Source: Vectrevirus T205P4
Sequence record: OZ035727.1
Strand: one strand, 5' to 3'
Length of the DNA: 44,005 bases
Shown here piece by piece: positions 3,859 through 32,801 of this stretch (position 1 is its first letter; each line of letters begins with the position of its first letter). The notes beneath the pieces are model-generated. The model made no database searches. It was given only the letters and a program-made list of their open reading frames with translations, and had not been told where the DNA came from. Made by a program: the position numbers and the translations under genes.

Positions 3859-3887
3859 TACATAGCTTTATGTATCAGTGTCTTACG

Positions 3888-5888: not shown

Positions 5889-5895
5889 GCAACAG

Positions 5896-5918
5896 GCAGT
5901 GCGTAAGCACTGCTTTTC
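5896..5918 (+). terminator. Hairpin plus T-tract between the two tailspike genes
   Basis: GCAGTGC-GTAA-GCACTGC followed by TTTTCACGC. Confidence 0.5.
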
Positions 5919-5973
5919 ACGCAACTTTTCTTAAAGGTTATCATGGTGGTAGCCTTTCAGAAAAGGAGGTTAC

Positions 5974-7632: not shown

Positions 7633-7781
7633 TGCCATTAATCAAATCAGTTAAGCAAAGTGCTGTACGTCAGAACACAGAAGAACTCATTCAATCAGGA
7701 CGTGACCCTAAGCAAGCTTATGCGATTGCCAAGGATGTACAACGTCGTGCCTTGAAGAAACCTTCTGCATCTTCTGCGTAA
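7632..7781 (+). CDS. Hypothetical small protein, 49 aa
   Basis: TAATG stop/start overlap with tailspike 2; below track cutoff; no recognisable domain. Confidence 0.4.
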   Translation: MPLIKSVKQSAVRQNTEELIQSGRDPKQAYAIAKDVQRRALKKPSASSA

Positions 7782-7852
7782 GCAGGTTAATATCTTAGTA
7801 TAAACAAGGGCAGACCTAGGTTTGCTCTTAGTGTATTTACAATGGAGGTCTT

Positions 7853-7933
7853 ATGTATATACCTATGGAAGCAATAGTAGGTTGCCTATGCTTGTTGATA
7901 GGTTTCGTTATAGGCTTAATAGCAAAGCCTTAG
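7853..7933 (+). CDS. Hypothetical 26-aa hydrophobic micro-protein (MYIPMEAIVGCLCLLIGFVIGLIAKP)
   Basis: GGAGG RBS 5 nt upstream; a single predicted transmembrane helix; last ORF before the terminal non-coding region. Confidence 0.3.
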   Translation: MYIPMEAIVGCLCLLIGFVIGLIAKP

Positions 7934-7987
7934 TCCTGTACAAGGATTAACCAAAGTCAAAATTTTGATATGGTCGTGTGTGAGGTG

Positions 7988-8340
7988 TCTCGCCCTCGCC
8001 CTCGCCGGATTTCCCCCATACGGGTCCGCGCTGCGGTTGGCTTGGGAATTGGGCTGGGCTGGTCCGTCTTCAACCTGCTGCCGCAGGAAGCTCGACGGGT
8101 GGGCGAGGGCTTGCCTTGTACTCGCTTAGTGGTACACAAGGAGAACGCCTAGGAAGCGCTAGGGCACGCCTTAGTATTGGACAAGGTGATTGCCTTAGTT
8201 CAACCGCTTAGGGCTTACACGGGCCGTTTTAGGGCCATTCCTGAGCGTTTGACAGGGTGTGAGGGCGTGGGCTATCTGTTCGTTTCGCTACGCTTCACTC
8301 ACTGCTCCTCACTTCGTTCGTCGCTGCGGTAGCCTGATGT
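7988..8340. other. GC-rich non-coding block, candidate genome terminus / direct terminal repeat
   Basis: Clearly more GC-rich than the rest of the window by eye; begins TCTCGCCCTCGCCCTCGCC and contains TTTCCCCCATACGGG, resembling the T7 left-end motif TTCCCCCATAGGGGG; no credible ORF. Confidence 0.45.
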
Positions 8341-14562: not shown

Positions 14563-16551
14563 ATGGCTATTATTCAGAATGTACCGTGTCCTGCCTGTCA
14601 AAAGAATGGACATGATGTTACCGGCAACCATCTCATGATCTTTGATGATGGTGCTGGCTATTGCAACCGTGGTCACTTCCACGATAACGGAAAGCCATAC
14701 TACCATAAGCCCGAAGGTGGCATCGAGATAACCGAGTTGCCTATTACTGGCAATATCAAATATACACCTTCTCAGTTCAAAGAGATGGAGAAGGAAGGGA
14801 AGATAAGCGACCCTAAGCTACGCGCCATCGCACTTGGTGGTATGCGTATGAAAGACCGTTGGGAGGTTATGAATGAGCAAGAAAGGGCAGACCAAGAAGC
14901 AGAGTGGAAACTTGATGTTGAATGGTTCCTCACGCTTAAGCGTAAGAACCTTGTATCCCGACACATTCGCGGCGACATCGCAGCACTATATGATGTGCGA
15001 GTGGGCCATGATGAAGAAGGAAGAGTCAATCGTCACTACTACCCCCGCTTCGAGAAAGGTGAGCTAGTAGGCGCTAAGTGCCGTACCTTACCTAAAGACT
15101 TTAAGTTTGGTCATTTAGGTAAACTATTTGGTATGCAAGATCTTTTCGGTATGAATACTTTGTCTCACGTGTTAGACAAGGGAAGACGAAAGGATTGCTT
15201 GCTTATCGTAGGCGGCGAACTTGATGCACTAGCAGCCCAGCAGATGCTTCTTGATTCCGCCAAGGGCACTAAGTGGGAAGGACAACCATATCATGTGTGG
15301 TCTGTCAACAAGGGTGAGTCTTGCCTTGAAGAGATAGTGCAGAACCGTGAACATATCGCTCAATTCAAGAAGATTATATGGGGCTTTGATGGGGATGAGG
15401 TTGGGCAGAAGCAGAACCAACAAGCGGCTCGCCTGTTTCCTGGTAAATCCTATATCCTTGAGTATCCTTCTGGGTGTAAAGATGCTAACAAGGCATTGAT
15501 GGCTGGCAAGGCTAAAGAATTTGTGGATGCTTGGTTTAATGCCAAGTCATCTGATGAAGTCTTTGGTAGCCAGATTAAATCTATCGCATCTCAAAGGGAT
15601 AAGCTCAAGGCTGCACGTCCCGAGCAAGGATTGTCATGGCCTTGGCCTAAGCTGAACAAGGTAACGCTAGGTATTCGTAAGAACCAGCTTATCATTGTAG
15701 GTGCAGGGTCTGGTGTAGGTAAGACTGAGTTCCTTCGTGAAGTAGTTAAGCACCTCATTGAAGAACACGGTGAATCTGTAGGCATCATTTCTACAGAAGA
15801 CCCGATGGTCAAGGTGTCCCGTGCTTTTATCGGCAAGTGGATTGATAAGCGTATTGAGTTACCGCCAACCAACGACCCGAAAGAAGATGGATACCGTGAG
15901 GTGTTCGACTACACCGAGGAAGAAGCTAACGCCGCCATTGATTATGTAGCTGATACAGGTAAGCTGTTTGTAGCTGACCTAGAGGGTGACTATTCGATGG
16001 AAAAGGTAGAGCAAACTTGCCTAGAGTTTGAGGCTATGGGCATTTCTAATATCATCATTGATAACTTAACGGGGATTAAATTAGATGAGCGTGCTTTTGG
16101 TGGGAAGGTTGGTGCACTTGATGAATGCGTCAAGCGGATTGGTACTATCAAAGACCGACACCCGGTTACTATATTCCTTGTATCACACCTTACACGTCCT
16201 CCGGCAAACCGTACCCAACACGAAGAAGGTGGCGAAGTTATCCTTTCTGACTTCCGAGGCTCAGGAGCTATCGGATTCTGGGCATCTTACGCCTTGGGGA
16301 TTGAGCGTAATACAAGAGCTGAAACGCTTGACGAAAGGACTACCACGTACATCTCATGTGTCAAAGACCGCGACCAAGGTATCTGGACTGGAACCAAGGT
16401 CATGCTTAAGGGTGACATTCAAACCGGACGTTTAATGGAACCACAAGCCCGTACTAAGTCATTTGATACAGGTGAAGCAAGGCAACAAGAAGTACCAGAT
16501 TTACCGGACACTATAGAAGAGACTAACTTCGATGAAGAAAGTGAGTTCTGA
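14563..16551 (+). CDS. DNA primase/helicase (T7 gp4-like), 662 aa
   Basis: N-terminal Cys4 zinc ribbon (CPACQKNGHD...CNRGH), helicase Walker A GAGSGVGKT, acidic C-terminus ...FDEESEF ending in Phe as in T7 gp4. Confidence 0.93.
   Translation: MAIIQNVPCPACQKNGHDVTGNHLMIFDDGAGYCNRGHFHDNGKPYYHKPEGGIEITELPITGNIKYTPSQFKEMEKEGKISDPKLRAIALGGMRMKDRWEVMNEQERADQEAEWKLDVEWFLTLKRKNLVSRHIRGDIAALYDVRVGHDEEGRVNRHYYPRFEKGELVGAKCRTLPKDFKFGHLGKLFGMQDLFGMNTLSHVLDKGRRKDCLLIVGGELDALAAQQMLLDSAKGTKWEGQPYHVWSVNKGESCLEEIVQNREHIAQFKKIIWGFDGDEVGQKQNQQAARLFPGKSYILEYPSGCKDANKALMAGKAKEFVDAWFNAKSSDEVFGSQIKSIASQRDKLKAARPEQGLSWPWPKLNKVTLGIRKNQLIIVGAGSGVGKTEFLREVVKHLIEEHGESVGIISTEDPMVKVSRAFIGKWIDKRIELPPTNDPKEDGYREVFDYTEEEANAAIDYVADTGKLFVADLEGDYSMEKVEQTCLEFEAMGISNIIIDNLTGIKLDERAFGGKVGALDECVKRIGTIKDRHPVTIFLVSHLTRPPANRTQHEEGGEVILSDFRGSGAIGFWASYALGIERNTRAETLDERTTTYISCVKDRDQGIWTGTKVMLKGDIQTGRLMEPQARTKSFDTGEARQQEVPDLPDTIEETNFDEESEF
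16498..16521 (+). promoter_or_regulatory. Phage RNAP promoter P5 (GATTTACCGGACACTATAGAAGAG), inside the 3' end of the primase/helicase gene
   Basis: Perfect consensus copy about 30 nt before the helicase stop codon. Confidence 0.7.
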
Positions 16552-16572
16552 TTAGTGTATTTATCAGGGCTT

Positions 16573-16588
16573 GTCTCACATGTGAGAC
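16573..16588. repeat. 16-bp palindrome GTCTCACATGTGAGAC, copy 3 (extended GCTTGTCTCACATGTGAGACAGG)
   Basis: Lies 22 nt after the helicase stop; extended flank identical to the copy at 39653. Confidence 0.8.
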
Positions 16589-16627
16589 AGGCTCTTATTA
16601 AGTACATTAAATAACTGGAGATTGATT

Positions 16628-17311
16628 ATGTATAAATTAGTATTGAATGCAGGTGATTATGTTCGTAACATCAATGAAGCCTCACGTCGTTATCATTGCC
16701 GTGGTGTAGTGGCTCGTGTAAGTGAGAACATGTATCATGTAGAGTATGAGGATGGTATTAAGGCTTCTTACCACAAGAAAACAGCACATAAATATCTTGA
16801 AAAGATTGTAGAGATAAACAATCAATGTAAGTGCATACATGATGAGGTTTGCGATAAATGTGCTCGCCAGATGCTTAAGAATTTCCTAGCTCCTCTTTAT
16901 TATGGTGCTGGCCCTCAAACACTAGCAGAGTACATGGCAGAAAAGAAAACCACAATTAAGAAAGAGCGCCGCAATGTAATCACTGGTAAGACTCAAAGTG
17001 AAATGATTAAACTATGTGGCACTGCATTAGGTGTTACGCAGTTTAACACTCGTGCTCTTGGTAAATCCACAGGACAAGCTATGGTGAAAATTGGTGAAGC
17101 TATGATGCATCCAAATGTACCTGTACGAATCATGGATGTTGACCATGCAATCACAGAGCATGGCACACCACGGCGTGTAGCTAATAATCATTTTGCCGAC
17201 ACTATAGAAGGTATTATTCGTAAGCAAGAGTTGAAGGGTCTTCACATCTTAAATGGTGAAGAATTACTGTACCTACCTATCGTTACTGAAGAAACATACG
17301 TGAATATCTAA
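16628..17311 (+). CDS. Hypothetical protein, about 227 aa, with Cys cluster (CKCIHDEVCDKC)
   Basis: GGAGA RBS before ATG at 16628; no recognisable catalytic motif. Confidence 0.65.
   Translation: MYKLVLNAGDYVRNINEASRRYHCRGVVARVSENMYHVEYEDGIKASYHKKTAHKYLEKIVEINNQCKCIHDEVCDKCARQMLKNFLAPLYYGAGPQTLAEYMAEKKTTIKKERRNVITGKTQSEMIKLCGTALGVTQFNTRALGKSTGQAMVKIGEAMMHPNVPVRIMDVDHAITEHGTPRRVANNHFADTIEGIIRKQELKGLHILNGEELLYLPIVTEETYVNI
17189..17212 (+). promoter_or_regulatory. Possible weak phage promoter (CATTTTGCCGACACTATAGAAGGT) internal to the 16628 gene
   Basis: Core GACACTATAGAAGG conserved, upstream half deviates at 3 positions. Confidence 0.35.
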
Positions 17312-17321
17312 GGAGTTAATC

Positions 17322-17540
17322 ATGACTAAGGTATTAATTTATATGCGTGGACCTCATAAATGCTATGCAGTTGTAGCACCAAATGGTGTTAAGCCCTATA
17401 GAACTTCAAAAAGATTGGCATTAGTAGGTGCTAGTAGTAGTGCAAGTTTCCAAATGGAACTTTTTGGTCATTGGACTGAACGGCAATTCCGTGAGGATTT
17501 TAAAGTCATTGGCAGCTTCATGGTGAAATATGCAGAATAA
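17322..17540 (+). CDS. Hypothetical protein, 72 aa
   Basis: AGGAG RBS before ATG. Confidence 0.5.
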   Translation: MTKVLIYMRGPHKCYAVVAPNGVKPYRTSKRLALVGASSSASFQMELFGHWTERQFREDFKVIGSFMVKYAE

Positions 17541-17739
17541 ACATAGTCTTAAAATGTTCGATGGTCATGAAGACCTGCAAGCCAAGATTACTAACCAAGC
17601 CTTCCTGTTCGCACAGGTAACTATGGCTGAAGCAAAGAAGAATAGCCTGACGCGTGAACAGGTTATCAAGGAGGCAACTTGGGAGCCACACCAAGGTAAA
17701 TACATGGGCCAGAAATTAACGGTAACACGCAGTCGATAA
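17530..17739 (+). CDS. Hypothetical protein, 69 aa (start uncertain)
   Basis: Overlaps previous stop; alternative ATG at 17554. Confidence 0.45.
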   Translation: MQNKHSLKMFDGHEDLQAKITNQAFLFAQVTMAEAKKNSLTREQVIKEATWEPHQGKYMGQKLTVTRSR

Positions 17740-17749
17740 GTCAAGGGTT

Positions 17750-17765
17750 GTCTCACACGTGAGAC
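17750..17765. repeat. 16-bp palindrome GTCTCACACGTGAGAC, copy 4
   Basis: Perfect palindrome 11 nt after the 17530 ORF stop. Confidence 0.8.
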
Positions 17766-17796
17766 AGCCTTTCATCATATTGATTGGAGGTGCATT

Positions 17797-17904
17797 ATGC
17801 CACGTGATTATGATTCTGATTGGGATTTCCAAGATTCAATGCAACCTAAACCAGAAAGGAGGGAGGATGAGTTCGAAACAGATCAAATGTATGAGGATTT
17901 TTAC
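17797..17904 (+). CDS. Hypothetical acidic micro-protein, 35 aa (MPRDYDSDWDFQDSMQPKPERREDEFETDQMYEDFY)
   Basis: TTGGAGG RBS 6 nt upstream; overlaps the HNH gene start; could instead be untranslated leader. Confidence 0.3.
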
Positions 17905-18346
17905 TAACTACATCCTCTATTCCGACGGTCGTATCTTTAGTGATAAGAAGAAGAGATACCTAACAGGTACTCTTGATAGCTACGGTTACCGTCAAGTTAA
18001 ACTTAATGGAGACTTATACCTCTTACACAGGTTAGTTGCATTATATTTCATTCCTAATCCCGATAACTTACCTGAAGTTGATCACGTAGATTTTAACCGA
18101 GACAATAATTGTGTATCTAATCTACGGTGGGTTTCCAGAAGAACCAACCTAGAGCATAGCAAGGTAAGACGCTGTACTGCACAGGCTAAGTTTTATAACT
18201 TCGTAGACCCTGACGGTAATATTGTTACAGTGTATGGTCTATCTTCTTTCTGCAAAGAGAATGGACTAAGCCAAGCAGCGATGCACCATGTGTGGTCTGG
18301 TAATAGAAATCATCACAAAGGTTGGACTAAATATGTTGAATGTTGA
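17867..18346 (+). CDS. Free-standing HNH homing endonuclease, about 160 aa
   Basis: GYRQVKL...LHRLVALYFIPNP...VDHVDFNRDNN...NLRWV...N pattern typical of phage HNH endonucleases; AGGAGGGAGG RBS before ATG at 17867. Confidence 0.85.
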   Translation: MSSKQIKCMRIFTNYILYSDGRIFSDKKKRYLTGTLDSYGYRQVKLNGDLYLLHRLVALYFIPNPDNLPEVDHVDFNRDNNCVSNLRWVSRRTNLEHSKVRRCTAQAKFYNFVDPDGNIVTVYGLSSFCKENGLSQAAMHHVWSGNRNHHKGWTKYVEC

Positions 18347-20879
18347 TTGGAAAGAATACGGTAAAAACCGGATCCTAGTTATGGACGCCGAAGCAAAAGG
18401 CTTGCTTGATGCCATACGCTATGGTCATCGTGAAGATGTGCACATCATTTGCTGCATGGATTTACTCACCACTGAGGAGTTCCTATTCTTCGACCCATAT
18501 GAGATGCGTGACCCTGAGGCAAGGGAACGCCTGAAGGAGTGGGAAGGCCATCAAGACGGAACCTTGGTTGATGGTGTTAACTTCCTAAAGCACTGTGAAG
18601 CCATCGTCTCACAGAACTTCCTAGGCTATGACGGGCTTCTCTTTGAGAAAGCCTTCCCTGACATCTGGAAAGGATTTAACTACACCGAGAGGCGCGGCAA
18701 TGGCAGACTACGTGCTGACCTGTGTCCGGTACGCGTCATGGATACGCTGGTCATGAGTCGCCTGTTAAACCCAGATAGACGCCTTCCTCCGCAAGCATAT
18801 GCCAAAGGCATGGGTAACGTCGCCCCTCACTCAATTGAGGCGCACGGCATCCGTATAGGCCGCTATAAACCAGAGAACGAGGACTGGTCTAAACTAACTG
18901 ACCACATGGTTCACCGTGTACGTGAAGACGTGGCAATTGGTCGTGACCTTTTCCTATGGCTTTACAACGGAGAGTGGACGGAGCACAAACGCCGTGGCGT
19001 GAATAAACGTACTGGCCTAGGTATTGAGACAGCCTTCCACATGGAGTCCATTGTGGCGCTGGAGATGAGCCGTCAGGCCGAGCGCGGGTTCCGTCTGGAC
19101 ATCGACAAGGCTTTGGCCCGATGCGAAGAATTGGACGCTAAAATTGACGAGACAGTCGCAGCGTTCCGCCCTCACATGCCTATGCGTATCAAGTCTAAAC
19201 CTTTTAAACCGGAAGAAAAGAATGAAGTATGCCAACGCGCAAATGAGTATGGAGCTAGCAACAATATACCTACTGTCCTTGACCCCTCACACTTTCTTCA
19301 TGCCGAGAGACGAGGAGATCGCAAGACAGTATGGAGTGTCACTACTAAGTCTGGTGATTGGTCGGCTAGTGTCAAGAAAGACTTCCCTCACCTTAGAGGA
19401 AACCGTAATGACACGCCAAGCATCAAGTGGATTGGCGCTTACTCGCCTGTTACTTTCGAAGAGATTCCCTTGGGTAACAGGGATACAGTTAAGCAAGTGC
19501 TCTATGATTATGGATGGAAAGGTGTTGAATTTAACGATACCGAGCAAGCTCATCTCGATGAGCACGGAGTGTTACCCAAACCTTGGAGTGGTAAGATAAA
19601 TGAAAAGTCCCTTACTTTATGGCAAGAAAGAGCCGCACGTGAAGGTAAAACAGTCCCTGATTGGTGCTTGGGTATCGCTGCATGGTACATACTCGTATCC
19701 CGTCGTGGTCAGATACTCAACCGTGGTGACGTTGAAGCCTTCAACGAGAAGGGAACGTGGCCCTCGCAGGCTGGTGTACGAAAGTGTCGCGGCCTTGTAC
19801 CGGTAGCATTCAACAAGGAGCTAGGAATCAATGCGCAGCAATACTACGAGAGGTACGGATATTGGCCTACGTCTGACAAAGATGACGGAGAGTGGCGTGT
19901 TCCAGCTGTTGCTATTAGTATTGGCACTTCTACGTTCCGTATGCGTCATCGTAACGTGGTTAATATTCCTGCCCGTGGCTTGTATCCTTTACGTGATTTA
20001 TTCATAGCAGGGAAAGGCAAGCTAATCCTTGGTTGTGACGGTGCAGGTCTTGAACTGCGTGTCCTGTCTCACTTCATGAATGACCCTGAGTACCAAGAGA
20101 TTGTACTGCACGGTGATATTCATACGCATAACCAGATGAAGGCTGGTCTTCCTAAGCGTGATATGGCGAAGACGTTTATATACGCCTTCCTCTATGGCTC
20201 TGGTATAGCCAACCTTGCAGCAGTATGTGGTGTTACTGAGGAGGAAATGAAGGAAGTTGTGGCAAGATTCGAGATTGAACTGCCGTCTCTTGCACGTCTT
20301 CGTGAGAATGTTATCGCACAAGGTAACAAGTTTGGCTACCTGCAAGCACCTGATGGGCATTGGGGTCGCATCCGCATGTCTGGTGGTGAACTTAAAGAGC
20401 ACACGATGCTTAACGTATTACTCCAGATGACTGGCTCTTTGTGTATGAAATATGCATTAGTAAAGGCATTTGCAGTAATGCGCAAGGAAGGTGTAGCCTT
20501 GGATGCTATGGGAAATCCTTGTGGTGTGGCTAACGTGCATGATGAAATCCAGATGGAAGTTCCTGAAGAGGAGGTCTTGTATCTTAACTACGACCTACCT
20601 TTCACCTTAGATGGGTTCGAAACAGAGAAGGCTGCCGTGAAAGCAGTGTTCGATGCAGAGGAGAAACGTGTTCATGTGGATTCTGAAGGACGTATGTGGT
20701 CTGCTGCAAACCTCGTCAGTGTTGATGCTGATGCTGGTGTATTGCATTGCCAGCGCCGTTATCACCGTGCAGGGCATATCATTGCCGACGCCATGACTTG
20801 GGCTGGTCAGTATCTGAAGATGCGTTGCCCGATGGCAGGAGAATATAAGATTGGCACAAGTTGGAAGGAAACACACTGA
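18333..20879 (+). CDS. DNA polymerase, family A (T7 gp5-like), about 848 aa
   Basis: N-terminal 3'-5' exonuclease motif (VMDAEAKGL), long polymerase domain, size close to SP6-type DNAP; start at ATG 18333 (MLNVDWKEYG). Confidence 0.95.
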   Translation: MLNVDWKEYGKNRILVMDAEAKGLLDAIRYGHREDVHIICCMDLLTTEEFLFFDPYEMRDPEARERLKEWEGHQDGTLVDGVNFLKHCEAIVSQNFLGYDGLLFEKAFPDIWKGFNYTERRGNGRLRADLCPVRVMDTLVMSRLLNPDRRLPPQAYAKGMGNVAPHSIEAHGIRIGRYKPENEDWSKLTDHMVHRVREDVAIGRDLFLWLYNGEWTEHKRRGVNKRTGLGIETAFHMESIVALEMSRQAERGFRLDIDKALARCEELDAKIDETVAAFRPHMPMRIKSKPFKPEEKNEVCQRANEYGASNNIPTVLDPSHFLHAERRGDRKTVWSVTTKSGDWSASVKKDFPHLRGNRNDTPSIKWIGAYSPVTFEEIPLGNRDTVKQVLYDYGWKGVEFNDTEQAHLDEHGVLPKPWSGKINEKSLTLWQERAAREGKTVPDWCLGIAAWYILVSRRGQILNRGDVEAFNEKGTWPSQAGVRKCRGLVPVAFNKELGINAQQYYERYGYWPTSDKDDGEWRVPAVAISIGTSTFRMRHRNVVNIPARGLYPLRDLFIAGKGKLILGCDGAGLELRVLSHFMNDPEYQEIVLHGDIHTHNQMKAGLPKRDMAKTFIYAFLYGSGIANLAAVCGVTEEEMKEVVARFEIELPSLARLRENVIAQGNKFGYLQAPDGHWGRIRMSGGELKEHTMLNVLLQMTGSLCMKYALVKAFAVMRKEGVALDAMGNPCGVANVHDEIQMEVPEEEVLYLNYDLPFTLDGFETEKAAVKAVFDAEEKRVHVDSEGRMWSAANLVSVDADAGVLHCQRRYHRAGHIIADAMTWAGQYLKMRCPMAGEYKIGTSWKETH

Positions 20880-20995
20880 TGGATAGGCTTGACATTGTTT
20901 GCCTGTTCTTCACTTTCTTTCTTACACTCCTTATGCTTGCTTGTTATGGGAGTGTGAGACTAGATGTACCTGATGAAGAAGAGGGTTACGACTAA
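20879..20995 (+). CDS. Small membrane protein, 38 aa, hydrophobic core plus acidic C-terminus (DVPDEEEGYD)
   Basis: TGATG overlap with DNAP stop; below track cutoff. Confidence 0.35.
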   Translation: MDRLDIVCLFFTFFLTLLMLACYGSVRLDVPDEEEGYD

Positions 20996-21093
20996 TGCAA
21001 ACTGCTTTTATTATTCTTGGTATCGTATTATTTATGGTAGTACTCTGGGCCTTCTCTGGCATTGACCCGGATTGTGATGGTAACTACGACTGA
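20995..21093 (+). CDS. Small membrane protein, 32 aa, hydrophobic core plus acidic C-terminus (DPDCDGNYD)
   Basis: TAATG overlap with previous small ORF; same architecture. Confidence 0.35.
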   Translation: MQTAFIILGIVLFMVVLWAFSGIDPDCDGNYD

Positions 21094-21150
21094 GTTATAC
21101 TCAAGGTCACTTACGAGTGGCCTTTATGAATAACTTAACTGGAGAGTATT

Positions 21151-21411
21151 ATGATTAAATCACAGAAGTATTTCTCAACTAAAGATCGTAAGGTAGGTTT
21201 TGAAATCAAAGTTTGGGAAGACGGACACATTACTATTATTTACGAAGGTAAAGGTTCTAATGGTATGATGCTACGTAGATGCCGTACATTCACAAAGAAA
21301 GAATGTATGCATATGTCTGAATGCATGTTTCTTTACATCATTGCTGATGATATTAAAGGTATGAAGCTAATTGTATCTCTACCTTTAATACCTAAATCTT
21401 TGTTAGGTTGA
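21151..21411 (+). CDS. Hypothetical protein, 86 aa
   Basis: GGAGAG RBS. Confidence 0.55.
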   Translation: MIKSQKYFSTKDRKVGFEIKVWEDGHITIIYEGKGSNGMMLRRCRTFTKKECMHMSECMFLYIIADDIKGMKLIVSLPLIPKSLLG

Positions 21412-21433
21412 TTTACTGGACACTATAGAAGGA
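21410..21433 (+). promoter_or_regulatory. Phage RNAP promoter P6 (GATTTACTGGACACTATAGAAGGA)
   Basis: Consensus copy overlapping the stop of the 21151 gene. Confidence 0.8.
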
Positions 21434-21497
21434 AAGCCTAGGTAATCTAGGTTTATAAGGTAGTATGGGTAATTAAGTAAATATAGGAGATATAAAT

Positions 21498-21875
21498 ATG
21501 TCAATGGTAACTACTCTGGTATTTGTAGCTCAATACTTTCGTGGTCTGGCTAATAAGTTCAAATCCAAGGCTATCAAAGCTATTGAGTCTCGCATCGAGG
21601 CAGTACAGGCAGAGCAAGTTAAAGTTGAAGAACATCGTAGTTCTCAAATGATTGACTGTCATAACCGCTACTATGCATCTCGTGATGAACTAAATGCACG
21701 TCAAGTCAAAGAGGTAGAAGATATGCTGGCACGTCACCAGCAAGAGCGTGACAGCCTGAAAGCTGAATTTGAAGAGAACAAGGCATCAATTGCTCTTGTA
21801 AATCAAGCTGCATCTGACAGCCTGAAGAAAGAGATTGTTATGCTGGAAATAGAACTGGACAACTTGACTAAATAA
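21498..21875 (+). CDS. Hypothetical membrane-anchored coiled-coil protein, 125 aa
   Basis: AGGAGA RBS; N-terminal hydrophobic segment then charged heptad-like region. Confidence 0.6.
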   Translation: MSMVTTLVFVAQYFRGLANKFKSKAIKAIESRIEAVQAEQVKVEEHRSSQMIDCHNRYYASRDELNARQVKEVEDMLARHQQERDSLKAEFEENKASIALVNQAASDSLKKEIVMLEIELDNLTK

Positions 21876-21881
21876 GGGGTT

Positions 21882-22181
21882 ATGATGGAAGAAGTGATTC
21901 AAGCTAAACATGTAGGTATCATCTTTCGTGATCTAGAGCAGCGTAAAGTTGCAGGTTACACTCGTCTGGCTAAAGAATACGATACAGCAATCACTACTGT
22001 GGAACAAGCAGATGCCTATCGTGGTCCAGAGTTTACTCAAGGTGAAACTTGTCATCAATTGAGCCTTTCACTTTGTGACACTATGGCTAGTGTAAATGTA
22101 CAAGAGGTTGAAGATGGTGAATGTGTTAGTTATGTCTACCCTCTCGACACTATTGCACGTATTAAGGTAGTTCATAAGTAA
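21882..22181 (+). CDS. Hypothetical protein, 99 aa
   Basis: AAGGGG RBS; tandem ATG ATG. Confidence 0.55.
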   Translation: MMEEVIQAKHVGIIFRDLEQRKVAGYTRLAKEYDTAITTVEQADAYRGPEFTQGETCHQLSLSLCDTMASVNVQEVEDGECVSYVYPLDTIARIKVVHK

Positions 22182-22202
22182 TTACTGGACACTATAGAAC
22201 AA
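22180..22202 (+). promoter_or_regulatory. Phage RNAP promoter P7 (AATTACTGGACACTATAGAACAA)
   Basis: Consensus-like, with AAC in place of AAG after the start site. Confidence 0.7.
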
Positions 22203-22258
22203 TAGGTCGGCTTAGTTCGGCCTATGATTGTGTAGTGTAACAATAGGAGACTAAATAA

Positions 22259-23065
22259 ATGGCACGTGGTGATTTTGATTTTGGTGCTCAGGTTACTAAA
22301 GCTGAAGGTAAAGTATTTAAGAACCCTGAAGTTGGTGATCATGAAGCAGTAATCTCTGGCATCATTCATGTTGGTTCCTTCCAAGATATCTTTAAGAAAG
22401 GTAATACCACTGAAGTTAAGAAGCCAGCAAACTTTGTTCTTGTTAAGATTATCCTGATGGGTGACGACGATAAGAATGAAGATGATTCTCGCATGGAACA
22501 ATGGATGGCTGTGCCTCTGAAGTCTGGTGATAAGGCAACACTGACTAAGTTCCTGAATGCAGTTGACCCTAAAGAGTTGCTGGGTGGCTTCGATGATTTT
22601 ATCGGTGAATGTCTGACTGCAACTATGGTTGGCTCTGGCGACAAGAATGATGATGGTACTTTCAAGTATGTTAACTGGAAAGGCTTTGGCGGTATGCCTG
22701 ATAAGTTGAAGAAGCTTGTACTGGCTCAGGTAGAAGAGGAAGGTCTGTCTATGACAGGTCATATCACCTTCGACAAGCTGACCAAAGAAATCCTTGATGA
22801 CATCCCAGCTAACTTGGTACGTCAATACTTCCTGAACGAGACACCTCGTGGTAAGAACCTGTCTGTTGCTGGCTCTCACGTAGAAGCTATTATCAAAGCT
22901 GCTCGTGAAGAAGACCTTGAATGGAAGAAGGCTAAGAAGAAAGACGAGGAAGATGCTACCCCAGCTAATCGTAAATCTCTGGATACTGGTGAGTCTGTTC
23001 CACAGGAAGTACCTGAAGCAGAAGATACTCCTGCACCGGAGATGGATGAGGACGCGGAATATTAA
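22259..23065 (+). CDS. Hypothetical DNA-metabolism protein, 268 aa, acidic C-terminal tail ending in Tyr; possibly the ssDNA-binding protein (gp2.5 analog)
   Basis: Strong RBS and promoter; acidic tail ...PEMDEDAEY resembles the polymerase-interacting tails of T7 gp2.5/gp4; body does not obviously align to T7 gp2.5, so function is a guess. Confidence 0.7.
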   Translation: MARGDFDFGAQVTKAEGKVFKNPEVGDHEAVISGIIHVGSFQDIFKKGNTTEVKKPANFVLVKIILMGDDDKNEDDSRMEQWMAVPLKSGDKATLTKFLNAVDPKELLGGFDDFIGECLTATMVGSGDKNDDGTFKYVNWKGFGGMPDKLKKLVLAQVEEEGLSMTGHITFDKLTKEILDDIPANLVRQYFLNETPRGKNLSVAGSHVEAIIKAAREEDLEWKKAKKKDEEDATPANRKSLDTGESVPQEVPEAEDTPAPEMDEDAEY

Positions 23066-23074
23066 GGAGAAAGG

Positions 23075-23293
23075 ATGAAAGTACAAATCGTAACCCTGCA
23101 CTGCAAGAAAGGAATTACAACTCTTGGCGGCAACACTTTTCACTCCTTCTCTGAGGGGGGCACATATGCCGACCTGCACTACATCTGGCGCGACGGACAG
23201 CACGTGGTGAACTACAGCGACCCAGCTACGGGGAAACGCCACGGCGTATCGCTTCCGGCGCATGACATTGCTCAGGTGAACACAGTTTTATAA
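23075..23293 (+). CDS. Hypothetical protein, 72 aa
   Basis: AAGGAGA RBS. Confidence 0.5.
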   Translation: MKVQIVTLHCKKGITTLGGNTFHSFSEGGTYADLHYIWRDGQHVVNYSDPATGKRHGVSLPAHDIAQVNTVL

Positions 23294-23294
23294 A

Positions 23295-23310
23295 GTCTCA
23301 CGTGTGAGAC
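23295..23310. repeat. 16-bp palindrome GTCTCACGTGTGAGAC, copy 5 (reverse orientation of the CACG variant)
   Basis: Perfect palindrome 14 nt upstream of promoter P8. Confidence 0.8.
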
Positions 23311-23324
23311 AAATCGGTGTCCGG

Positions 23325-23348
23325 TATTTACTGGACACTATAGAAGAG
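23325..23348 (+). promoter_or_regulatory. Phage RNAP promoter P8 (TATTTACTGGACACTATAGAAGAG)
   Basis: Perfect consensus. Confidence 0.8.
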
Positions 23349-23398
23349 AAGAATTTTAATCGGCGATAATGCCATAACCAACAAAAGGAGAATTTAAT

Positions 23399-23770
23399 AT
23401 GTTCAAGATTGAAACTATCGTAAACCGTGTTGTTAAAGGTGCTGCTCTGGTATCCGTTGAGTCTTTCATTATCGTCGATGAAGCTGATCAACTGGTAGCT
23501 GGTACTAAGGCTTACGATACCCGTGAAGAAGCTCAGGCTAAGATTGACAGCATGGGTAACTTCGCTGCTGGTCTGGAGTTCGCTCGTGCTTGCTTCCCTG
23601 AGCAGGCTGACAAAGCCCAGATCGGTAAGGCTAACATCGTAGCTGAATATCTGGATTGGATTGCTGCTGGTAAACCAGTGAAAGAAGTTAAAGCTGCTGA
23701 AGAAGCTGAAGCTCCGGCAGTAGAAGAAACCAAAGCAGAAGAAGTACTGTCTGCTGAAGAAGAATTTTAA
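23399..23770 (+). CDS. Hypothetical, probably highly expressed protein, 123 aa, Ala/Glu-rich C-terminal tail ending ...SAEEEF
   Basis: Own consensus promoter, AAAAGGAGA RBS, terminator-like hairpin downstream; acidic tail ending in Phe. Confidence 0.7.
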   Translation: MFKIETIVNRVVKGAALVSVESFIIVDEADQLVAGTKAYDTREEAQAKIDSMGNFAAGLEFARACFPEQADKAQIGKANIVAEYLDWIAAGKPVKEVKAAEEAEAPAVEETKAEEVLSAEEEF

Positions 23771-23834: not shown

Positions 23835-24107
23835 ATGCCGACTATTGAATCTCGAATTACAATGGACATTAGCTACAATGCAATCACCAGACAATACATT
23901 GGGGTGGCCTATGATTACAAAACTGGTGAGAAGCTAGTGGAGGTGAGACAATGGGATGACTATTGGTTAAGACAGAACCTCCATGATGCGGTGTCCTCCT
24001 TCTTGAAGGAGTGGCCTACATGCGACCAAACTTCGACTTCGGAGCTACAGTATCGGAAGACAATAATCTCATCCTGTGGCCAACTGAAGGTAATAGAATC
24101 GCTTTAA
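23835..24107 (+). CDS. Hypothetical protein, 90 aa, overlapping the exonuclease gene start by about 88 nt
   Basis: GGAGA RBS before ATG at 23835; the large overlap makes the real extent uncertain. Confidence 0.35.
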   Translation: MPTIESRITMDISYNAITRQYIGVAYDYKTGEKLVEVRQWDDYWLRQNLHDAVSSFLKEWPTCDQTSTSELQYRKTIISSCGQLKVIESL

Positions 24108-25048
24108 TAGATGCTGATATGCTACCCTACATCGTAGCTTATACAATCAGTGACATGACTTATGTGCGAGCCACAACTCGTGTTAAGTCAGGACAAGTCC
24201 CATCAATCAAAGATACACCTGAGTGTAAGCAAGCGTGTGACCGTGTGAACTCCTTGCTTAACTCTTGGGTATACGCAGCAGAGTGCGATGCAGCTAAGTT
24301 ATTCATGACGAAATCAGAAGCTAACTTCCGTGTTCGCCTAGCCTTCACCAAGCCTTATAAGGGTCAACGTAAGACCGAGAAGCCTCCGTTCTTCTATGAA
24401 TTGCGAGAGCATCTCTTAGAGGTTCATGGTGCAATCTTGGCAGATGGAGAAGAGGCTGATGACCTCATGAGCATTGCACAATGGGACAGCCACCGCCGCT
24501 TCCAGCAAGATACAGGTAACGAGTTCCCTATCGGTAGTCCAGAGCATAAAGCATTCTCTGATACTTGCATCGTTTCCTTAGATAAGGATTTGATGATTGT
24601 TCCCGGTTGGCATCTTCAGCCGGGTCAAGAGAAGAAATGGGTAGAGCCTATGGGTTGGCTTGAGTTACGCCGTAAGGCTAATGGTCAGGTTAAAGACCTT
24701 AAAGGTGCTGGCCTCATGTTTCATTATGCACAGATGATTATCGGTGATGATATTGATAACTATGCTGGCATACCTGGACGTGGTGCTAAATACGCCTATG
24801 ATCTTCTCAAAGATTGTAAGACAGAGAAAGAGTTGTACATGGCAGTGCTTGGTGCTTACAAGGCTAAGTTCGGACATGGACAAGTTAAGATTAAGAATTA
24901 CCGAGGTGGTTATCGTATCGGCAAGGCTTTTGACCTGATGCTCGAATGTGGTCGCCTAGCTCACATGGCAAGATTCAAAGGTGATATATGGCGAGCCGAT
25001 AAGAACCCAATCTTGTGGGGAGATGATGCGGAATGGTTAGCAAATTAA
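24020..25048 (+). CDS. 5'-3' exonuclease (T7 gp6-like, FEN/PIN-type), about 342 aa
   Basis: IALIDADMLPY aligns with T7 gp6 ILVMDGDWLVF; further acidic clusters (EEADDLMS, DKDLMIV, GDDIDNYAGIPG); AGGAG RBS before ATG at 24020. Confidence 0.85.
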   Translation: MRPNFDFGATVSEDNNLILWPTEGNRIALIDADMLPYIVAYTISDMTYVRATTRVKSGQVPSIKDTPECKQACDRVNSLLNSWVYAAECDAAKLFMTKSEANFRVRLAFTKPYKGQRKTEKPPFFYELREHLLEVHGAILADGEEADDLMSIAQWDSHRRFQQDTGNEFPIGSPEHKAFSDTCIVSLDKDLMIVPGWHLQPGQEKKWVEPMGWLELRRKANGQVKDLKGAGLMFHYAQMIIGDDIDNYAGIPGRGAKYAYDLLKDCKTEKELYMAVLGAYKAKFGHGQVKIKNYRGGYRIGKAFDLMLECGRLAHMARFKGDIWRADKNPILWGDDAEWLAN

Positions 25049-27048: not shown

Positions 27049-27996
27049 ATGAATATCTTTGAGTTCCTAGGTCTTCCAGAAGACCACCGCAATCACCCAT
27101 TCATGCTGGTGAAGCATCGCGGTGAAGTTCCTGAGAAGAAATTAACTTTTCCATGTTATGCACAGGTGAAACGAGATGGTATCTTTTCTGCTGTTGTTGT
27201 TCGCACTGATGGTGTCGTTGGCATTTTTGGTCGCACTGGTAAGAAATTGGCAAACACTGAAGGCCTCGAACAAGCATTTGCTACCTTTCCGGTTGGCATT
27301 TATCTTGGTGAGCTTCAGTCTATGGCCATTGATATCTACCTTGAGGCAATCTCTGGGGTTGTGAACCCCAATCGCACTGAGCCACTTGATTTCATAGGCC
27401 AGCAGATTAAAGACAACCTGTATATCGACTTCTTCGATATGTTAACTATTAAGGCATTCCATGATGGATTCACTGATGTTTCTTATCTCAAACGTTACGA
27501 TGCTTTACATCGCCGCATCGGCGCTCATCTTAGCGGGTACAACGCTATCCTTCCTATTACTCCTTGCCATAATGAGCGAGAAGTTGAAGCGTTTGCGCAA
27601 GAGCAGATAGACGCAGGCCGAGAGGGTGCTGTGTTTAAACTGGACTGTGATTATGAAGCAGGACATAAAGGTTATCGTCAGACTAAAGAAGTCCGTAAGG
27701 TAACTTATGACCTTACTTGTATTGGCTTTGAAGAAGGTAAAGGCAAATACAAAGGTAAGGTAGCTAACCTCATTTTCAAATGGAAAGGAGGCAAGACAAT
27801 CAAAGCTATGTTAGGTAAGGGGTGGGCTCATGCAGATGCAGAACAGATGTTCCACGACATTAAACATGGTGGACGATTGAATGTCATTGGTAAAATCTTT
27901 GAAGTCAAAGGTCTTCAGGATTCAAGCAAGGGCAACATTCGTCTGCCCAAAGCGGGAGAATTAAGACATGACAAAGATGAACCAGATTTCTTTTGA
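27049..27996 (+). CDS. ATP-dependent DNA ligase (T7 gp1.3-like), about 315 aa
   Basis: Adenylation motif AQVKRDG, EGAVFK and LIFKWK motifs. Confidence 0.85.
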   Translation: MNIFEFLGLPEDHRNHPFMLVKHRGEVPEKKLTFPCYAQVKRDGIFSAVVVRTDGVVGIFGRTGKKLANTEGLEQAFATFPVGIYLGELQSMAIDIYLEAISGVVNPNRTEPLDFIGQQIKDNLYIDFFDMLTIKAFHDGFTDVSYLKRYDALHRRIGAHLSGYNAILPITPCHNEREVEAFAQEQIDAGREGAVFKLDCDYEAGHKGYRQTKEVRKVTYDLTCIGFEEGKGKYKGKVANLIFKWKGGKTIKAMLGKGWAHADAEQMFHDIKHGGRLNVIGKIFEVKGLQDSSKGNIRLPKAGELRHDKDEPDFF

Positions 27997-28183
27997 TAGC
28001 ATGAAGGCAACTCGTGCAGTTGAGGTAGCAGAAGCTATCTTTGAAACTTTATCCTGTGGCATGGAAGTGCCATATACTTTACTTGCTGATGCAGAAGAAC
28101 TTGGTCTTTCTGTAGAAGCTATCCAAGAGAAGGTTGACGAATTATATGGTACAGACGAAGAAGAAACCGACGATTTCATTTGA
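27968..28183 (+). CDS. Hypothetical acidic protein, 71 aa (ends ...EEETDDFI)
   Basis: GGGAGA RBS; overlaps ligase 3' end. Confidence 0.45.
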   Translation: MTKMNQISFDSMKATRAVEVAEAIFETLSCGMEVPYTLLADAEELGLSVEAIQEKVDELYGTDEEETDDFI

Positions 28184-28994: not shown

Positions 28995-30545
28995 ATGAAA
29001 CAGAGCACAGATTTGGAGTATGGAGGTAAGCGGTCTAAGATACCTAAGCTATGGGAGAAGTTCTCCACTAAACGTAGCTCTTTCCTTGATAGGGCGAAGC
29101 ATTACTCCAAATTAACCTTGCCCTATCTGATGAATGACAAAGGTGATAACGAGACTTCGCAGAATGGATGGCAAGGTGTAGGTGCTCAGGCAACTAATCA
29201 TCTAGCCAACAAGCTAGCGCAAGTACTATTTCCTGCACAGCGTTCCTTCTTCCGTGTAGACTTAACTGCACAAGGTGAGAAGGTTCTTAATCAGCGTGGC
29301 CTGAAGAAGACAGAGCTAGCTACCATCTTCGCTCAAGTGGAAACACGGGCAATGAAAGAGTTAGAGCAACGTCAATTCCGGCCTGCTGTAGTGGAAGCAT
29401 TCAAGCATCTTATTGTTGCTGGTAGCTGTATGCTATACAAGCCGAGCAAAGGTGCAATCAGTGCTATCCCAATGCATCACTATGTAGTTAACCGTGATAC
29501 CAATGGCGACCTGTTAGACATTATCTTACTGCAAGAGAAAGCCTTACGCACCTTTGACCCAGCTACACGTGCTGTAGTAGAGGTTGGCCTGAAAGGTAAG
29601 AAGTGCAAGGAGGATGACAGCGTTAAGCTGTACACACATGCTAAGTATCTTGGTGATGGATTTTGGGAACTCAAGCAATCTGCTGATGATATCCCTGTGG
29701 GTAAGGTGAGTAAAATCAAATCAGAAAAGCTACCTTTCATCCCATTAACTTGGAAGCGAAGCTATGGTGAGGATTGGGGTCGCCCTCTTGCAGAGGATTA
29801 CTCCGGTGATTTATTCGTTATCCAATTCTTATCTGAAGCGGTTGCCCGTGGTGCTGCGCTGATGGCAGATATCAAGTACCTGATTCGTCCGGGTGCTCAA
29901 ACTGATGTTGACCACTTTGTTAACTCTGGCACTGGTGAGGTTGTCACTGGTGTAGAAGAAGACATCCATATTGTACAGTTAGGTAAGTACGCAGACCTCA
30001 CACCTATTAGCGCGGTTCTAGAGGTATACACTCGCCGTATCGGTGTTGTCTTCATGATGGAGACAATGACACGCCGTGACGCCGAACGTGTTACTGCTGT
30101 AGAAATCCAGCGAGATGCGTTAGAGATTGAGCAGAACATGGGTGGTGTATACTCCCTCTTTGCTACTACTATGCAATCGCCAGTAGCGATGTGGGGTCTG
30201 CTGGAGGCAGGGGAGTCCTTCACTAGTGACTTAGTGGACCCTGTGATTATCACAGGTATTGAAGCTTTAGGACGCATGGCTGAGTTGGATAAACTGGCTA
30301 ACTTTGCTCAGTATATGTCACTGCCATTACAATGGCCTGAGCCTGTCCTAGCTGCTGTGAAATGGCCTGACTATATGGATTGGGTGCGTGGTCAAATCTC
30401 TGCTGAACTGCCGTTCCTTAAATCGGCTGAAGAGATGGCACAAGAACAGGAAGCACAGATGCAAGCACAGCAAGCACAGATGCTTGAAGAAGGTGTGGCT
30501 AAGGCCGTGCCGGGTGTAATTCAACAAGAACTTAAGGAGGCGTAA
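28995..30545 (+). CDS. Head-tail connector (portal) protein, T7 gp8-like, 516 aa
   Basis: Size and position before scaffold and capsid genes; acidic Gln/Ala/Glu-rich C-terminus. Confidence 0.85.
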   Translation: MKQSTDLEYGGKRSKIPKLWEKFSTKRSSFLDRAKHYSKLTLPYLMNDKGDNETSQNGWQGVGAQATNHLANKLAQVLFPAQRSFFRVDLTAQGEKVLNQRGLKKTELATIFAQVETRAMKELEQRQFRPAVVEAFKHLIVAGSCMLYKPSKGAISAIPMHHYVVNRDTNGDLLDIILLQEKALRTFDPATRAVVEVGLKGKKCKEDDSVKLYTHAKYLGDGFWELKQSADDIPVGKVSKIKSEKLPFIPLTWKRSYGEDWGRPLAEDYSGDLFVIQFLSEAVARGAALMADIKYLIRPGAQTDVDHFVNSGTGEVVTGVEEDIHIVQLGKYADLTPISAVLEVYTRRIGVVFMMETMTRRDAERVTAVEIQRDALEIEQNMGGVYSLFATTMQSPVAMWGLLEAGESFTSDLVDPVIITGIEALGRMAELDKLANFAQYMSLPLQWPEPVLAAVKWPDYMDWVRGQISAELPFLKSAEEMAQEQEAQMQAQQAQMLEEGVAKAVPGVIQQELKEA

Positions 30546-31465
30546 TGTCTTTCTCATTTACTGAACCGTCAACCACTCACCCTACTGCTGAAGAGGGTCC
30601 GGTAGAAACCAAGGAGGTAACAACTGATGCTGCTACTACTGATGATCCTGCTGACGCTGGCACTGCTGTACAAGATGACAATGCTGGTGCACAACCTACT
30701 GAAGACACCGGAGGAGAAGCTTCTGGACAGCCTTCAGAAAAAGGAGACAATGGCGGAGAGAATGGTGAACCTAAGCCAGATGATACCGCGACCGACACTG
30801 AGGAAGTGCAATACTTCTTCGGAGAACATGAAGTAACAGTAGACATCCCACAGGATGTAACTGACAGCCTTAAAGAGAAAGGCATTGATGCCAAGCAGGT
30901 TGCCAAGGAACTCTATTCCAAAGGTGGCAAGTTTGAACTGTCAGATGCAACCAAGCAGAAATTGTATGATGCTTTTGGCAAGTTTGCGGTAGATGCTTAC
31001 CTGTCAGGTCTTAAGGCTCAAAATGAAGCCTTCTTCCTGAAAGAAGCCAACGCAGCTAAAGAGTTGGAAGCAGCTAACACCCAACGCTTCTCTGATGTTT
31101 CTAAGGAAATTGGTGGCGAAGAAGGTTGGTCCCGTCTTGAGGAGTGGGCGCTTGAAACGCTATCCGATGACGAACTCACGGCATTCAATGCTGTGATGGA
31201 GTCTGGCAACCAGTACCTCCAGCAGTACGCTGTGCGTGAACTGGAGAGCCGCCGTAAGGCTGCACAGGGTGATGACAAACCAAATCTGATTGAACCCTCT
31301 GCACCTGCTACTGCATCTGAAGATAATGGCCCCCTCTCTCGTGAGCAGTACCTGCGTGAGATGATGACTCTTAGCTCTCGCTTCGGTACAGACAAGAAAG
31401 CTGCTGCTGAGTATCAGGCTAAACTGGATGCTCGCCGTCGTGCTGGTATGGCTCGAGGTCTGTAA
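30545..31465 (+). CDS. Capsid assembly (scaffolding) protein, T7 gp9-like, 306 aa
   Basis: Acidic low-complexity N-terminus and coiled-coil-like C-terminus; between portal and capsid genes. Confidence 0.75.
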   Translation: MSFSFTEPSTTHPTAEEGPVETKEVTTDAATTDDPADAGTAVQDDNAGAQPTEDTGGEASGQPSEKGDNGGENGEPKPDDTATDTEEVQYFFGEHEVTVDIPQDVTDSLKEKGIDAKQVAKELYSKGGKFELSDATKQKLYDAFGKFAVDAYLSGLKAQNEAFFLKEANAAKELEAANTQRFSDVSKEIGGEEGWSRLEEWALETLSDDELTAFNAVMESGNQYLQQYAVRELESRRKAAQGDDKPNLIEPSAPATASEDNGPLSREQYLREMMTLSSRFGTDKKAAAEYQAKLDARRRAGMARGL

Positions 31466-31468
31466 TCA

Positions 31469-31493
31469 GTATTTACTGGACACTATAGAAGGG
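31469..31493 (+). promoter_or_regulatory. Phage RNAP promoter P10 (TATTTACTGGACACTATAGAAGGG) for the capsid gene, with 5' leader hairpin GGGAGA-AATG-TCTCCC
   Basis: Perfect consensus; the transcript would begin with a 6-bp stem-loop. Confidence 0.85.
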
Positions 31494-31541
31494 AGAAATG
31501 TCTCCCTAAAATATCACTTTGATTTATAAGGAGGTTTATTA

Positions 31542-32747: not shown

Positions 32748-32754
32748 TACCTAT

Positions 32755-32789
32755 GCCCTATCTACCTTGCGTAGGTAGGGTTCTTTTTG
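32755..32789 (+). terminator. Strong hairpin terminator after the capsid gene (CCCTATCTAC-CTTGC-GTAGGTAGGG then TTCTTTTTG)
   Basis: 10-bp stem with one G-U pair, U-rich tract; analogous to T7 T-phi. Confidence 0.75.
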
Positions 32790-32801
32790 TTAGGAGGATT
32801 C

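Follow-up and report, generated by a model that had tools for sequence, protein, structure and literature searches.

Acidic, aromatic-ended C-terminal tails on three replication-module proteins of an SP6-like phage and a candidate single-stranded DNA-binding protein

Which replication proteins of an SP6-like phage carry acidic, aromatic-ended C-terminal tails of the kind known from T7, and is one of the carriers its SSB, the protein that binds single-stranded DNA? The T7 replisome is the textbook minimal replisome, and in it the acidic, Phe-terminated tails of gp4 and gp2.5 dock on gp5/thioredoxin; in gp2.5, removal of the terminal aromatic residue is dominant lethal. We addressed the question in the replication module of Vectrevirus T205P4 (sequence record OZ035727.1), analyzing the whole stretch of 44,005 nucleotides, hereafter the window. 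The 10 kb around the module are 94-97% identical at the DNA level to Vectrevirus records (K1E, K1-5, vB_EcoP_B, and others), and by this identity the window is an SP6/K1E-like Vectrevirus genome of the K1E/K1-5 group (Autographiviridae, Molineuxvirinae). The features on which the argument turns are the following.

14563..16551, + strand: T7 gp4-type primase/helicase, 662 amino acids (phrog_239 DNA primase/helicase, E = 1e-187)
18333..20879, + strand: family A DNA polymerase, candidate tail receptor (phrog_17, E = 3e-123)
19167..19472, + strand: basic insertion of 102 residues in the polymerase thumb, which lines up with the thioredoxin-binding domain of T7
22259..23065, + strand: 268-amino-acid predicted OB-fold protein (K1E gp16, SP6 gp18), candidate phage SSB by predicted fold, tail, and gene order
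23399..23770, + strand: 123-amino-acid protein (K1E gp18, SP6 gp20), alpha/beta domain plus acidic tail

An earlier note on this DNA had proposed that acidic, aromatic-ended tails recur on replication-associated proteins and had quoted five C-termini. Translation gives exactly these ends: ...TNFDEESEF for the primase/helicase, EMDEDAEY for the 268-amino-acid protein, SAEEEF for the 123-amino-acid protein, DKDEPDFF for the DNA ligase, and EEETDDFI for a 71-amino-acid protein. By the K1E annotation, which we follow in naming, the 268-amino-acid protein is gp16, the 123-amino-acid protein gp18 (both "hypothetical protein"), and the 71-amino-acid protein gp25; the SP6 names of the first two are gp18 and gp20. 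The recurrence itself was also confirmed, as the tails are enriched over chance and kept in orthologues. Under a strict rule (last residue F, Y, or W; at least three D or E and no K, R, or H among the preceding six residues), 3 of the 54 gene-like plus-strand open reading frames (ORFs) match, namely the primase/helicase, gp16, and gp18. Strict 7-mers occur at 0.21% of internal positions, which corresponds to 0.11 expected matches (binomial P = 2e-4), and the controls yielded none (0/140 minus-strand ORFs, 0/53 other plus-strand ORFs). A relaxed rule resulted in six matches against 0.49 expected (P = 1e-5), adding the ligase, the 71-amino-acid ORF, and a 44-amino-acid ORF at 20861-20995. Both rules applied to the 56 annotated T7 proteins retrieved gp2.5 (strict) and gp4 (relaxed) only. 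The tail-bearing set of the window exceeds that of T7 by one protein (helicase, gp16, and gp18 versus gp2.5 and gp4): gp18 is a third conserved tail bearer for which the same scan gave no T7 counterpart.

The last ~40 residues of the primase/helicase (about 16420-16548) form an acidic tail, ...DLPDTIEETNFDEESEF, with a net charge of -8. Orthologues from 13 of 13 genomes have a terminal or near-terminal aromatic residue behind acidic residues; it lies at position -2 or -3 in SP6, uligo, and Njord, and in JSF38, where the helicase is split, the C-terminal part ends ...DTDGEF. A parallel with the tail of T7 gp4 is supported by these data. Across nine related genomes, in which protein identity falls to ~30%, acidic ends with an aromatic residue at or near the terminus are retained by the helicase and by the gp16-like and gp18-like proteins alike. 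An unbiased ORF scan of 12 loci recovered gp16 and gp18 in 11 and the helicase in 9, with other matches being sporadic; Era103 gave no match for any of the three proteins, its tails being less acidic than the rule demands. We conclude that the tails are supported as a real, conserved, and non-random feature of the replication module. The window and the T7 replisome have in common a gp4-type primase/helicase with a family A polymerase, as well as disordered acidic tails, ended by an aromatic residue, on both the helicase and the SSB-like protein. The T7 tails end ...DTDF and ...DGDF, i.e., D-x-D-F, whereas those of the window end E-x-E-F/Y, and the helicase, gp16, and gp18 tails of the clade share [E/Q]-E-[F/Y].

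The genus Uliginvirus departs from the terminal position. Its gp16 and gp18 have the aromatic residue at -2 or -3 in 4/4 genomes. Among the helicases, those of uligo and Njord share this position and those of Alpheus and Ulina01 still end in Y or F; all three proteins are shifted in two of the four genomes. The shifted ends read ...TFD/...TFE, ...VFE/...TFD, and ...AFEG/...SFS. The ligase tip is ...GDF in the four genomes and stays constant where the other three tails shift. Because the three tails shift partly together and the ligase tip does not, the pattern suggests, with moderate weight, that the three tails share a receptor and that the ligase tip serves another role.

The earlier note had left the choice of the SSB analogue between the 268- and the 123-amino-acid proteins and had looked to an OB fold in structure prediction; the models retain the former and speak against the latter. 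The AlphaFold2 model of gp16 (25 homologues, mean pLDDT 78) is a predicted closed five-stranded beta-barrel (strands b1 26-47, b2 57-66, b3 80-86, b4 118-129, b5 135-144) with a helix (94-102) between strands 3 and 4, which is the OB topology. Behind the barrel comes a helical subdomain, and the model is disordered over residues 230-257. The OB core spans approximately residues 19-222, and residues 223-268 (22925-23062) comprise the linker, Lys-rich at first, then Pro/Glu-rich, and disordered, together with the tail. An acidic, aromatic-ended C-terminal tail of this kind also characterizes the gp2.5 family. In contrast, the predicted structure of gp18 consists of a beta-hairpin, three helices, and the acidic tail, and gp18 was rejected as an OB-fold SSB on this basis. 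A Foldseek search of the gp16 model against predicted viral structures retrieved uncharacterized proteins of phiKMV-like and other podophages, as well as two DUF669 proteins and one annotated SSB (E = 1e-4 to 1e-5); the DUF669 matches had E = 2.8e-5 and 2e-4 with TM scores of 0.30-0.48.

Gene order and the wider family add to this picture. In 13 genomes of related phages, as in distant metagenomic contigs, the gp16 gene comes after that for PolA, either immediately or a few small genes further on, and before the exonuclease gene. By tblastn, gp16 was found in 215 phage records, and where the records listed are annotated, the label is "hypothetical protein" or "unknown function." It belongs to phrog_862, a group with no assigned function. 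All 45 close homologues that were aligned have an acidic end with Y or F. A profile search of 1.84 billion representative proteins recovered just 62 relatives. Among the full-length representatives, 39/52 have an aromatic last residue (background 7%) and 31/52 the acidic run too, and several end DDDIPF, DDEVPF, or DDDEIPY, the tip of E. coli SSB. In metagenomic contigs, DDDIPF-type members sit between PolA and 5'-3' exonuclease genes, and the neighboring primase-helicase ends ...EDPGF.

No other SSB candidate emerged from the searches. With T7 gp2.5, N4 SSB, and E. coli SSB as phmmer queries, the six-frame ORFs of the window gave no match; the E. coli SSB query had a best E-value of 0.44. The full-text literature searched, which did not cover the SP6 genome paper (PMC374404), assigns no SSB to SP6-like phages. 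Since gp16 combines a predicted OB fold, a linker, an acidic aromatic tail, and a polymerase-adjacent gene, and no other SSB candidate was found, we propose it as the best SSB candidate and a likely functional analogue of gp2.5 that would bind single-stranded DNA (ssDNA).

The likeness to gp2.5 does not extend to detectable sequence relation. Neither gp2.5 family profile (PF21265 SBB_T7; PF10991 Enc34_ssDNA-bd) matches gp16, whereas T7 gp2.5 scores 299 bits on PF21265, and hhalign of the 268-amino-acid family alignment against T7 gp2.5 gave a probability of 0.04%. The gp16 sequence matches no Pfam family at E <= 1, 53 family members match none at E <= 0.01 (PF05037 included), and single-sequence and profile queries of PDB sequences found no relative. 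Three further SSB groups invite comparison. The N4 SSB/DUF669 proteins, which Kazlauskas et al. (2016, PMC4889955) predicted to be acidic-tailed SSBs with a diverged OB fold, are likewise phage-specific replication-module proteins of ~220-270 amino acids in which the OB fold is hard to see in sequence, and DUF669 proteins share with gp16 the acidic tail and appear among the structural neighbors of its model. However, hhalign against a nine-sequence N4 SSB alignment gave a probability of 5.3% over 31 columns, PF05037 did not match, and N4-type SSBs have a basic ...SLFGKK C-terminus instead of an acidic tail. In the N4-like SSBs (L011 15322-16119, L015-L022), the Phe of ...SLFGKK is invariant in the nine aligned sequences. 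E. coli SSB (tip DDDIPF) shares the OB core, the disordered linker, and the acidic Phe-ended tip, and some gp16-family tips read DDDIPF or DDEVPF, but the gp16 of the window ends EMDEDAEY and matches neither PF00436 nor the phmmer query. PrgE of plasmid pCF10 (PDB 8S4S), an atypical OB-fold SSB, differs by its 15% sequence identity to gp16, by having no acidic aromatic tail, and by not being a replisome protein.

The third carrier, gp18, consists of a small alpha/beta domain (residues 1-95) and an A/E/P/V-rich acidic tail (residues 96-123; 23684-23767). Its isoelectric point (pI) is 4.4. We found no recognizable known fold for the predicted structure and no match in Pfam, NCBIfam, or PDB sequences; the sole PHROGs match, phrog_4429, has no assigned function. 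A comparison with UPF0339/YegP (DUF1508) gave no clear-cut assignment by sequence or fold. Among the close homologues listed, 120/120 end EEEF. In an alignment of 49 sequences with identities down to 31%, the terminal F does not vary, while the A/E/P/V-rich linker is hypervariable in length and sequence. About 212 phage records contain gp18, its distribution over genera equals that of gp16, and the two co-occur in about 210; the hosts range from Escherichia to Vibrio, Ralstonia, and Marinomonas. In the genomes compared, one always finds its gene upstream of the exonuclease, one to two genes behind gp16. Judged by these alignments, gp18 is a conserved third tail bearer.

Both genes are preceded by SP6-type promoters, between which one further small gene is located.

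22180..22197, + strand: SP6-type phage promoter before the gp16 gene, AATTACTGGACACTATAG, matching the SP6-type consensus
23075..23293, + strand: 72-amino-acid protein (K1E gp17) between the two tail-bearing genes (phrog_5791; weaker phrog_8057 match)
23326..23343, + strand: SP6-type phage promoter before the gp18 gene, ATTTACTGGACACTATAG, then AAGAG

A strong AAGGAG ribosome-binding site follows the gp18 promoter, and the 18 bases at 23326 are identical to those at 31471, upstream of the ORF 31542-32747. The array of such promoters, ATTTAC[T/C]GGACACTATAG, comprises 14 matches (13 on the plus strand), where 0.4 would be expected, with sites including 2226, 3888, 14186, 16499, 21411, 22180, 23326, 26438, and 31471, and it defines the transcription units of the genome. 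gp17 has no acidic tail; in Alpheus and AS51, a relative occupies the position between the genes for the gp16-like and gp18-like proteins.

What could the three tails bind? In palm and fingers, the polymerase has 35% identity to T7 gp5, and in a MAFFT alignment of 10 polymerases its thumb insertion lies at the position of the T7 thioredoxin-binding domain, a further feature shared with the T7 replisome; the 3' end of the insertion, WIGAYSPVTFEEIPLGNRDTVKQ, aligns convincingly with T7 YVAGAPYTPVEHVVFNPSSRDHIQ. The insertion has 17 K+R and a net charge of +5, while that of the whole polymerase is -7. Two basic stretches in it, RRGDRK and VKKDFPHLRGNR, are aligned to loops of T7, with the alignment inside the insertion being uncertain. 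In T7, the tails are reported by Hamdan and colleagues (2005) to bind basic loops of the thioredoxin-binding domain. By this analogy, docking of the tails on the polymerase is plausible, and the groove of the SSB itself is an equally reasonable receptor.

We favor, with moderate confidence, a replisome that would work on the T7 principle of flexible acidic tails with an aromatic cap, placed on at least three proteins and not on two, with gp16 as the SSB and a shared receptor. The gp4-type primase/helicase would be the first tail carrier. gp16 would be the ssDNA-binding protein, built from a diverged OB core with a disordered linker behind it; its tail, which ends [D/E]-x-E-[F/Y], would, as in T7 gp2.5, fold onto the protein's own DNA-binding groove and, once displaced by ssDNA, recruit partners. 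gp18, with its own promoter, strong ribosome-binding site, and non-OB domain, might be an accessory factor or regulator, whose tail would compete for the receptor of the SSB and helicase tails or bring gp18 to it. That receptor would most likely be a basic surface of the polymerase, with the 102-residue thumb insertion as the candidate; the ssDNA groove of the SSB would be the alternative.

Several points weigh against this proposal. The link between the tails and a receptor is carried over from T7, where the tails bind the front basic patch K587, K589, R590, and R591 of the polymerase (PMC12339929). This patch is present in the T7 polymerase and not in that of the window, the segment being a gap in 9/9 aligned SP6-like polymerases, and the uncertain alignment within the thumb insertion burdens the candidate that takes its place. 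The Uliginvirus co-variation represents a single evolutionary event in one lineage and is incomplete, as two of the four helicases keep a terminal aromatic residue. Further, the core of gp18 is itself acidic (net charge -3), and the only curated family related to gp16, NF046043, bears the name of a replication initiation protein.

The alternative that survives best places the receptor in the ssDNA groove of gp16, or on the helicase: the tails would be ssDNA mimics that auto-inhibit the SSB and mediate hand-off, and gp18 would be a dedicated SSB regulator that prevents free SSB from binding DNA or removes SSB already bound. We consider this a serious but rather improbable alternative. In T7, the gp2.5 tail is reported by Marintcheva and colleagues (2008) to compete with ssDNA for gp2.5's own groove. 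Simulations of this competition have been reported as well (PMC12339929). The strong promoter and ribosome-binding site of gp18 would fit the stoichiometric amounts that such a regulator needs, its gene always follows the SSB gene at a distance of one to two genes, and the front basic patch of T7 is missing from the window polymerase. However, the T7 helicase and SSB tails do bind the polymerase, and the window polymerase does have a basic thumb insertion. The two receptors are also compatible with each other.

Less probable still, and in our view unlikely, is a host-directed gp18, whose tail, as a mimic of DNA or of the SSB tip of the host, would block one of the host's nucleases, a defense system, or an enzyme that interacts with SSB. 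T7 gp5.9 and Ocr are analogues for such acidic blocking, and the gp18 gene lies just upstream of the exonuclease gene, which is the location of gp5.9 in T7; the protein is small and acidic, with no recognizable fold and no match to a named family. Yet its tail has the flavor of the phage's own helicase and SSB tails and not of the host DDDIPF, it shifts with gp16 in 4/4 Uliginvirus genomes and with the helicase in 2/4, and its conservation in phages of hosts from Escherichia to Marinomonas argues for a phage-internal partner.

The NF046043 name ("phage replication initiation protein, NGO0469 family") raises the further alternative that gp16 is a replication initiation protein and not an SSB. 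The profile matches 51/53 gp16-family representatives (best E = 1.4e-47), and the match covers the OB core, residues 20-106; among them, P0221 reaches 128 bits and P0210 103 bits. The window protein reaches 18.1 bits (E = 0.0015) against a curated cutoff of 75 bits, and by the curated rule gp16 is, from its profile scores, a distant relative and not a member. P0221 is located between PolA and the exonuclease in its contigs (NF046043 loci L024 4119-4772 and L025 4838-5491). The name dates from 2007 and from BLAST matches to a nanovirus Rep (26% over 109 residues) and a phage primase (32% over 87 residues) (PMC1931599), without an experimental basis. The predicted fold is that of an OB protein, no Pfam nuclease, ATPase, or DNA-binding domain family matches, and members above the cutoff end DDEVPF or DDDEIPY, similar to bacterial SSBs. 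Because of the weak BLAST basis, the OB fold, and the SSB-type tips, the name "replication initiation protein" is probably wrong, and we regard the initiation reading as very unlikely. That the tails are ordinary acidic disordered ends with a coincidental resemblance is hardly credible and already disfavored: phage proteins are often acidic, the ligase and 71-amino-acid cases are weak, and the 44-amino-acid ORF also scores by the relaxed rule, but chance is contradicted by the P-values of 2e-4 to 1e-5 in the window with 0/140 control ORFs matching, by terminal aromatic residues kept to ~30% identity while the linkers vary freely, and by three tails that change together, at least partly, in one genus.

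The favored reading, a tail replisome with gp16 as the SSB, concerns three carriers. The earlier note had extended the same signature to two more proteins.

27049..27996, + strand: ATP-dependent DNA ligase with the short tip ...RHDKDEPDFF (PF01068, PF14743)
27968..28183, + strand: 71-amino-acid, very acidic protein (K1E gp25) with the end EEETDDFI (phrog_5860, no assigned function)

Their ends are present as quoted, but the extension holds less well: the ligase tip is short and does not co-vary, and the 71-amino-acid protein is restricted to Molineuxvirinae. Seven of nine ligase orthologues end [P/G/A]-D-[F/Y], five to six residues past ...DK... (mostly RHDK), with PDVY in K1E and PDVF in SP6. 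The ...RHDK... segment, read by eye, we take to be ligase motif VI. We considered the ligase tip as part of the same code and rated it weaker, as it is short, lies directly past this motif, carries D instead of E ahead of the aromatic residue, and shows no shift in Uliginvirus; it is conserved, and it may have a structural role. The 71-amino-acid protein (pI 4.05) has orthologues in K1E, SP6, and Era103 only, all of them acidic and with a near-terminal Y or F. Directly past the ligase gene, uligo (L012 17884-18054) and Njord (L013 18116-18286) have a 56-amino-acid ORF ending ...GENDFDE, which is a positional analogue of gp25.

The 5'-3' exonuclease (24011-25048, plus strand) also has a conserved end. 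Its orthologues keep a Trp 1-5 residues from the C-terminus in 8/9 related genomes and 4/4 Uliginvirus genomes, usually behind at least one acidic residue (...GDDAEWLAN, ...GDEGWLQS, ...GEEAAEWN, ...GSDSAWNE), and the C-terminus of T7 gp6 differs from these ends. From this alignment pattern, the Trp end may be a further conserved C-terminal contact motif.

Other observations concern the surroundings of these genes. Just upstream of the polymerase gene and overlapping its start, a 195-amino-acid ORF (17759-18346, plus strand) has an HNH-type motif, ...HVDFNRDNNCVSNLRWVSRRTNLEHS...; K1E has the small genes 11.5 and 12 at this interval instead, and the close relative ULINTec7 has two annotated HNH homing endonucleases in the region. 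This ORF looks like a mobile homing endonuclease insertion. The 44-amino-acid ORF (20861-20995, plus strand), which overlaps the terminal part of the polymerase gene, combines a hydrophobic segment at the N-terminal side with the acidic end ...DVPDEEEGYD; among the loci compared, it is conserved in K1E (gp13.5) only. The SSB candidate is flanked by a 99-amino-acid ORF (21882-22181) and the 72-amino-acid ORF (23075-23293), which are paralogues and both match phrog_8057; we regard a marginal Pfam match to plant-virus movement proteins as probably spurious. A perfect 16-base palindrome, GTCTCACGTGTGAGAC (23295-23310), fills part of the gap from gene 17 to the gp18 promoter and could be an RNA hairpin, a processing site, or a terminator element. 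Large ORFs occupy both ends of the window (1-8000 and 28995-44005) with early genes in the middle, and the window looks like a complete genome of ~44 kb that is circularly permuted relative to the K1E record.

The new element here is a tail mechanism known from T7 with a third carrier, together with an SSB candidate; we infer the docking on the polymerase. Extended to SP6-like and related Autographiviridae and to distant podophages with a gp4 helicase and PolA, the proposal would be a clamp-less replisome with one tail code, [E/Q]-E-[F/Y]-COOH, a single receptor, at least three carriers, gp18 as a new, abundant non-OB factor that T7 lacks and a possible competitive regulator of SSB and helicase docking, the ligase possibly brought in by a related second code, ...D-F/Y-COOH, and gp16 as a new SSB family. 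This wider form is tentative and, taken whole, possible rather than probable. The gp16 data point to a currently unrecognized and probably misnamed SSB family: if this is true, the 268-amino-acid protein defines an SSB family that NCBIfam labels "replication initiation protein." The third, highly expressed tail carrier would offer a way to ask how several partners share one site on the polymerase or the SSB. In SP6, K1E, K1-5, and their relatives, gp16 and gp18 are "hypothetical" in the annotated records listed, leaving these phages without an annotated SSB. The 268-amino-acid candidate would fill this gap in a group of widely used phages.

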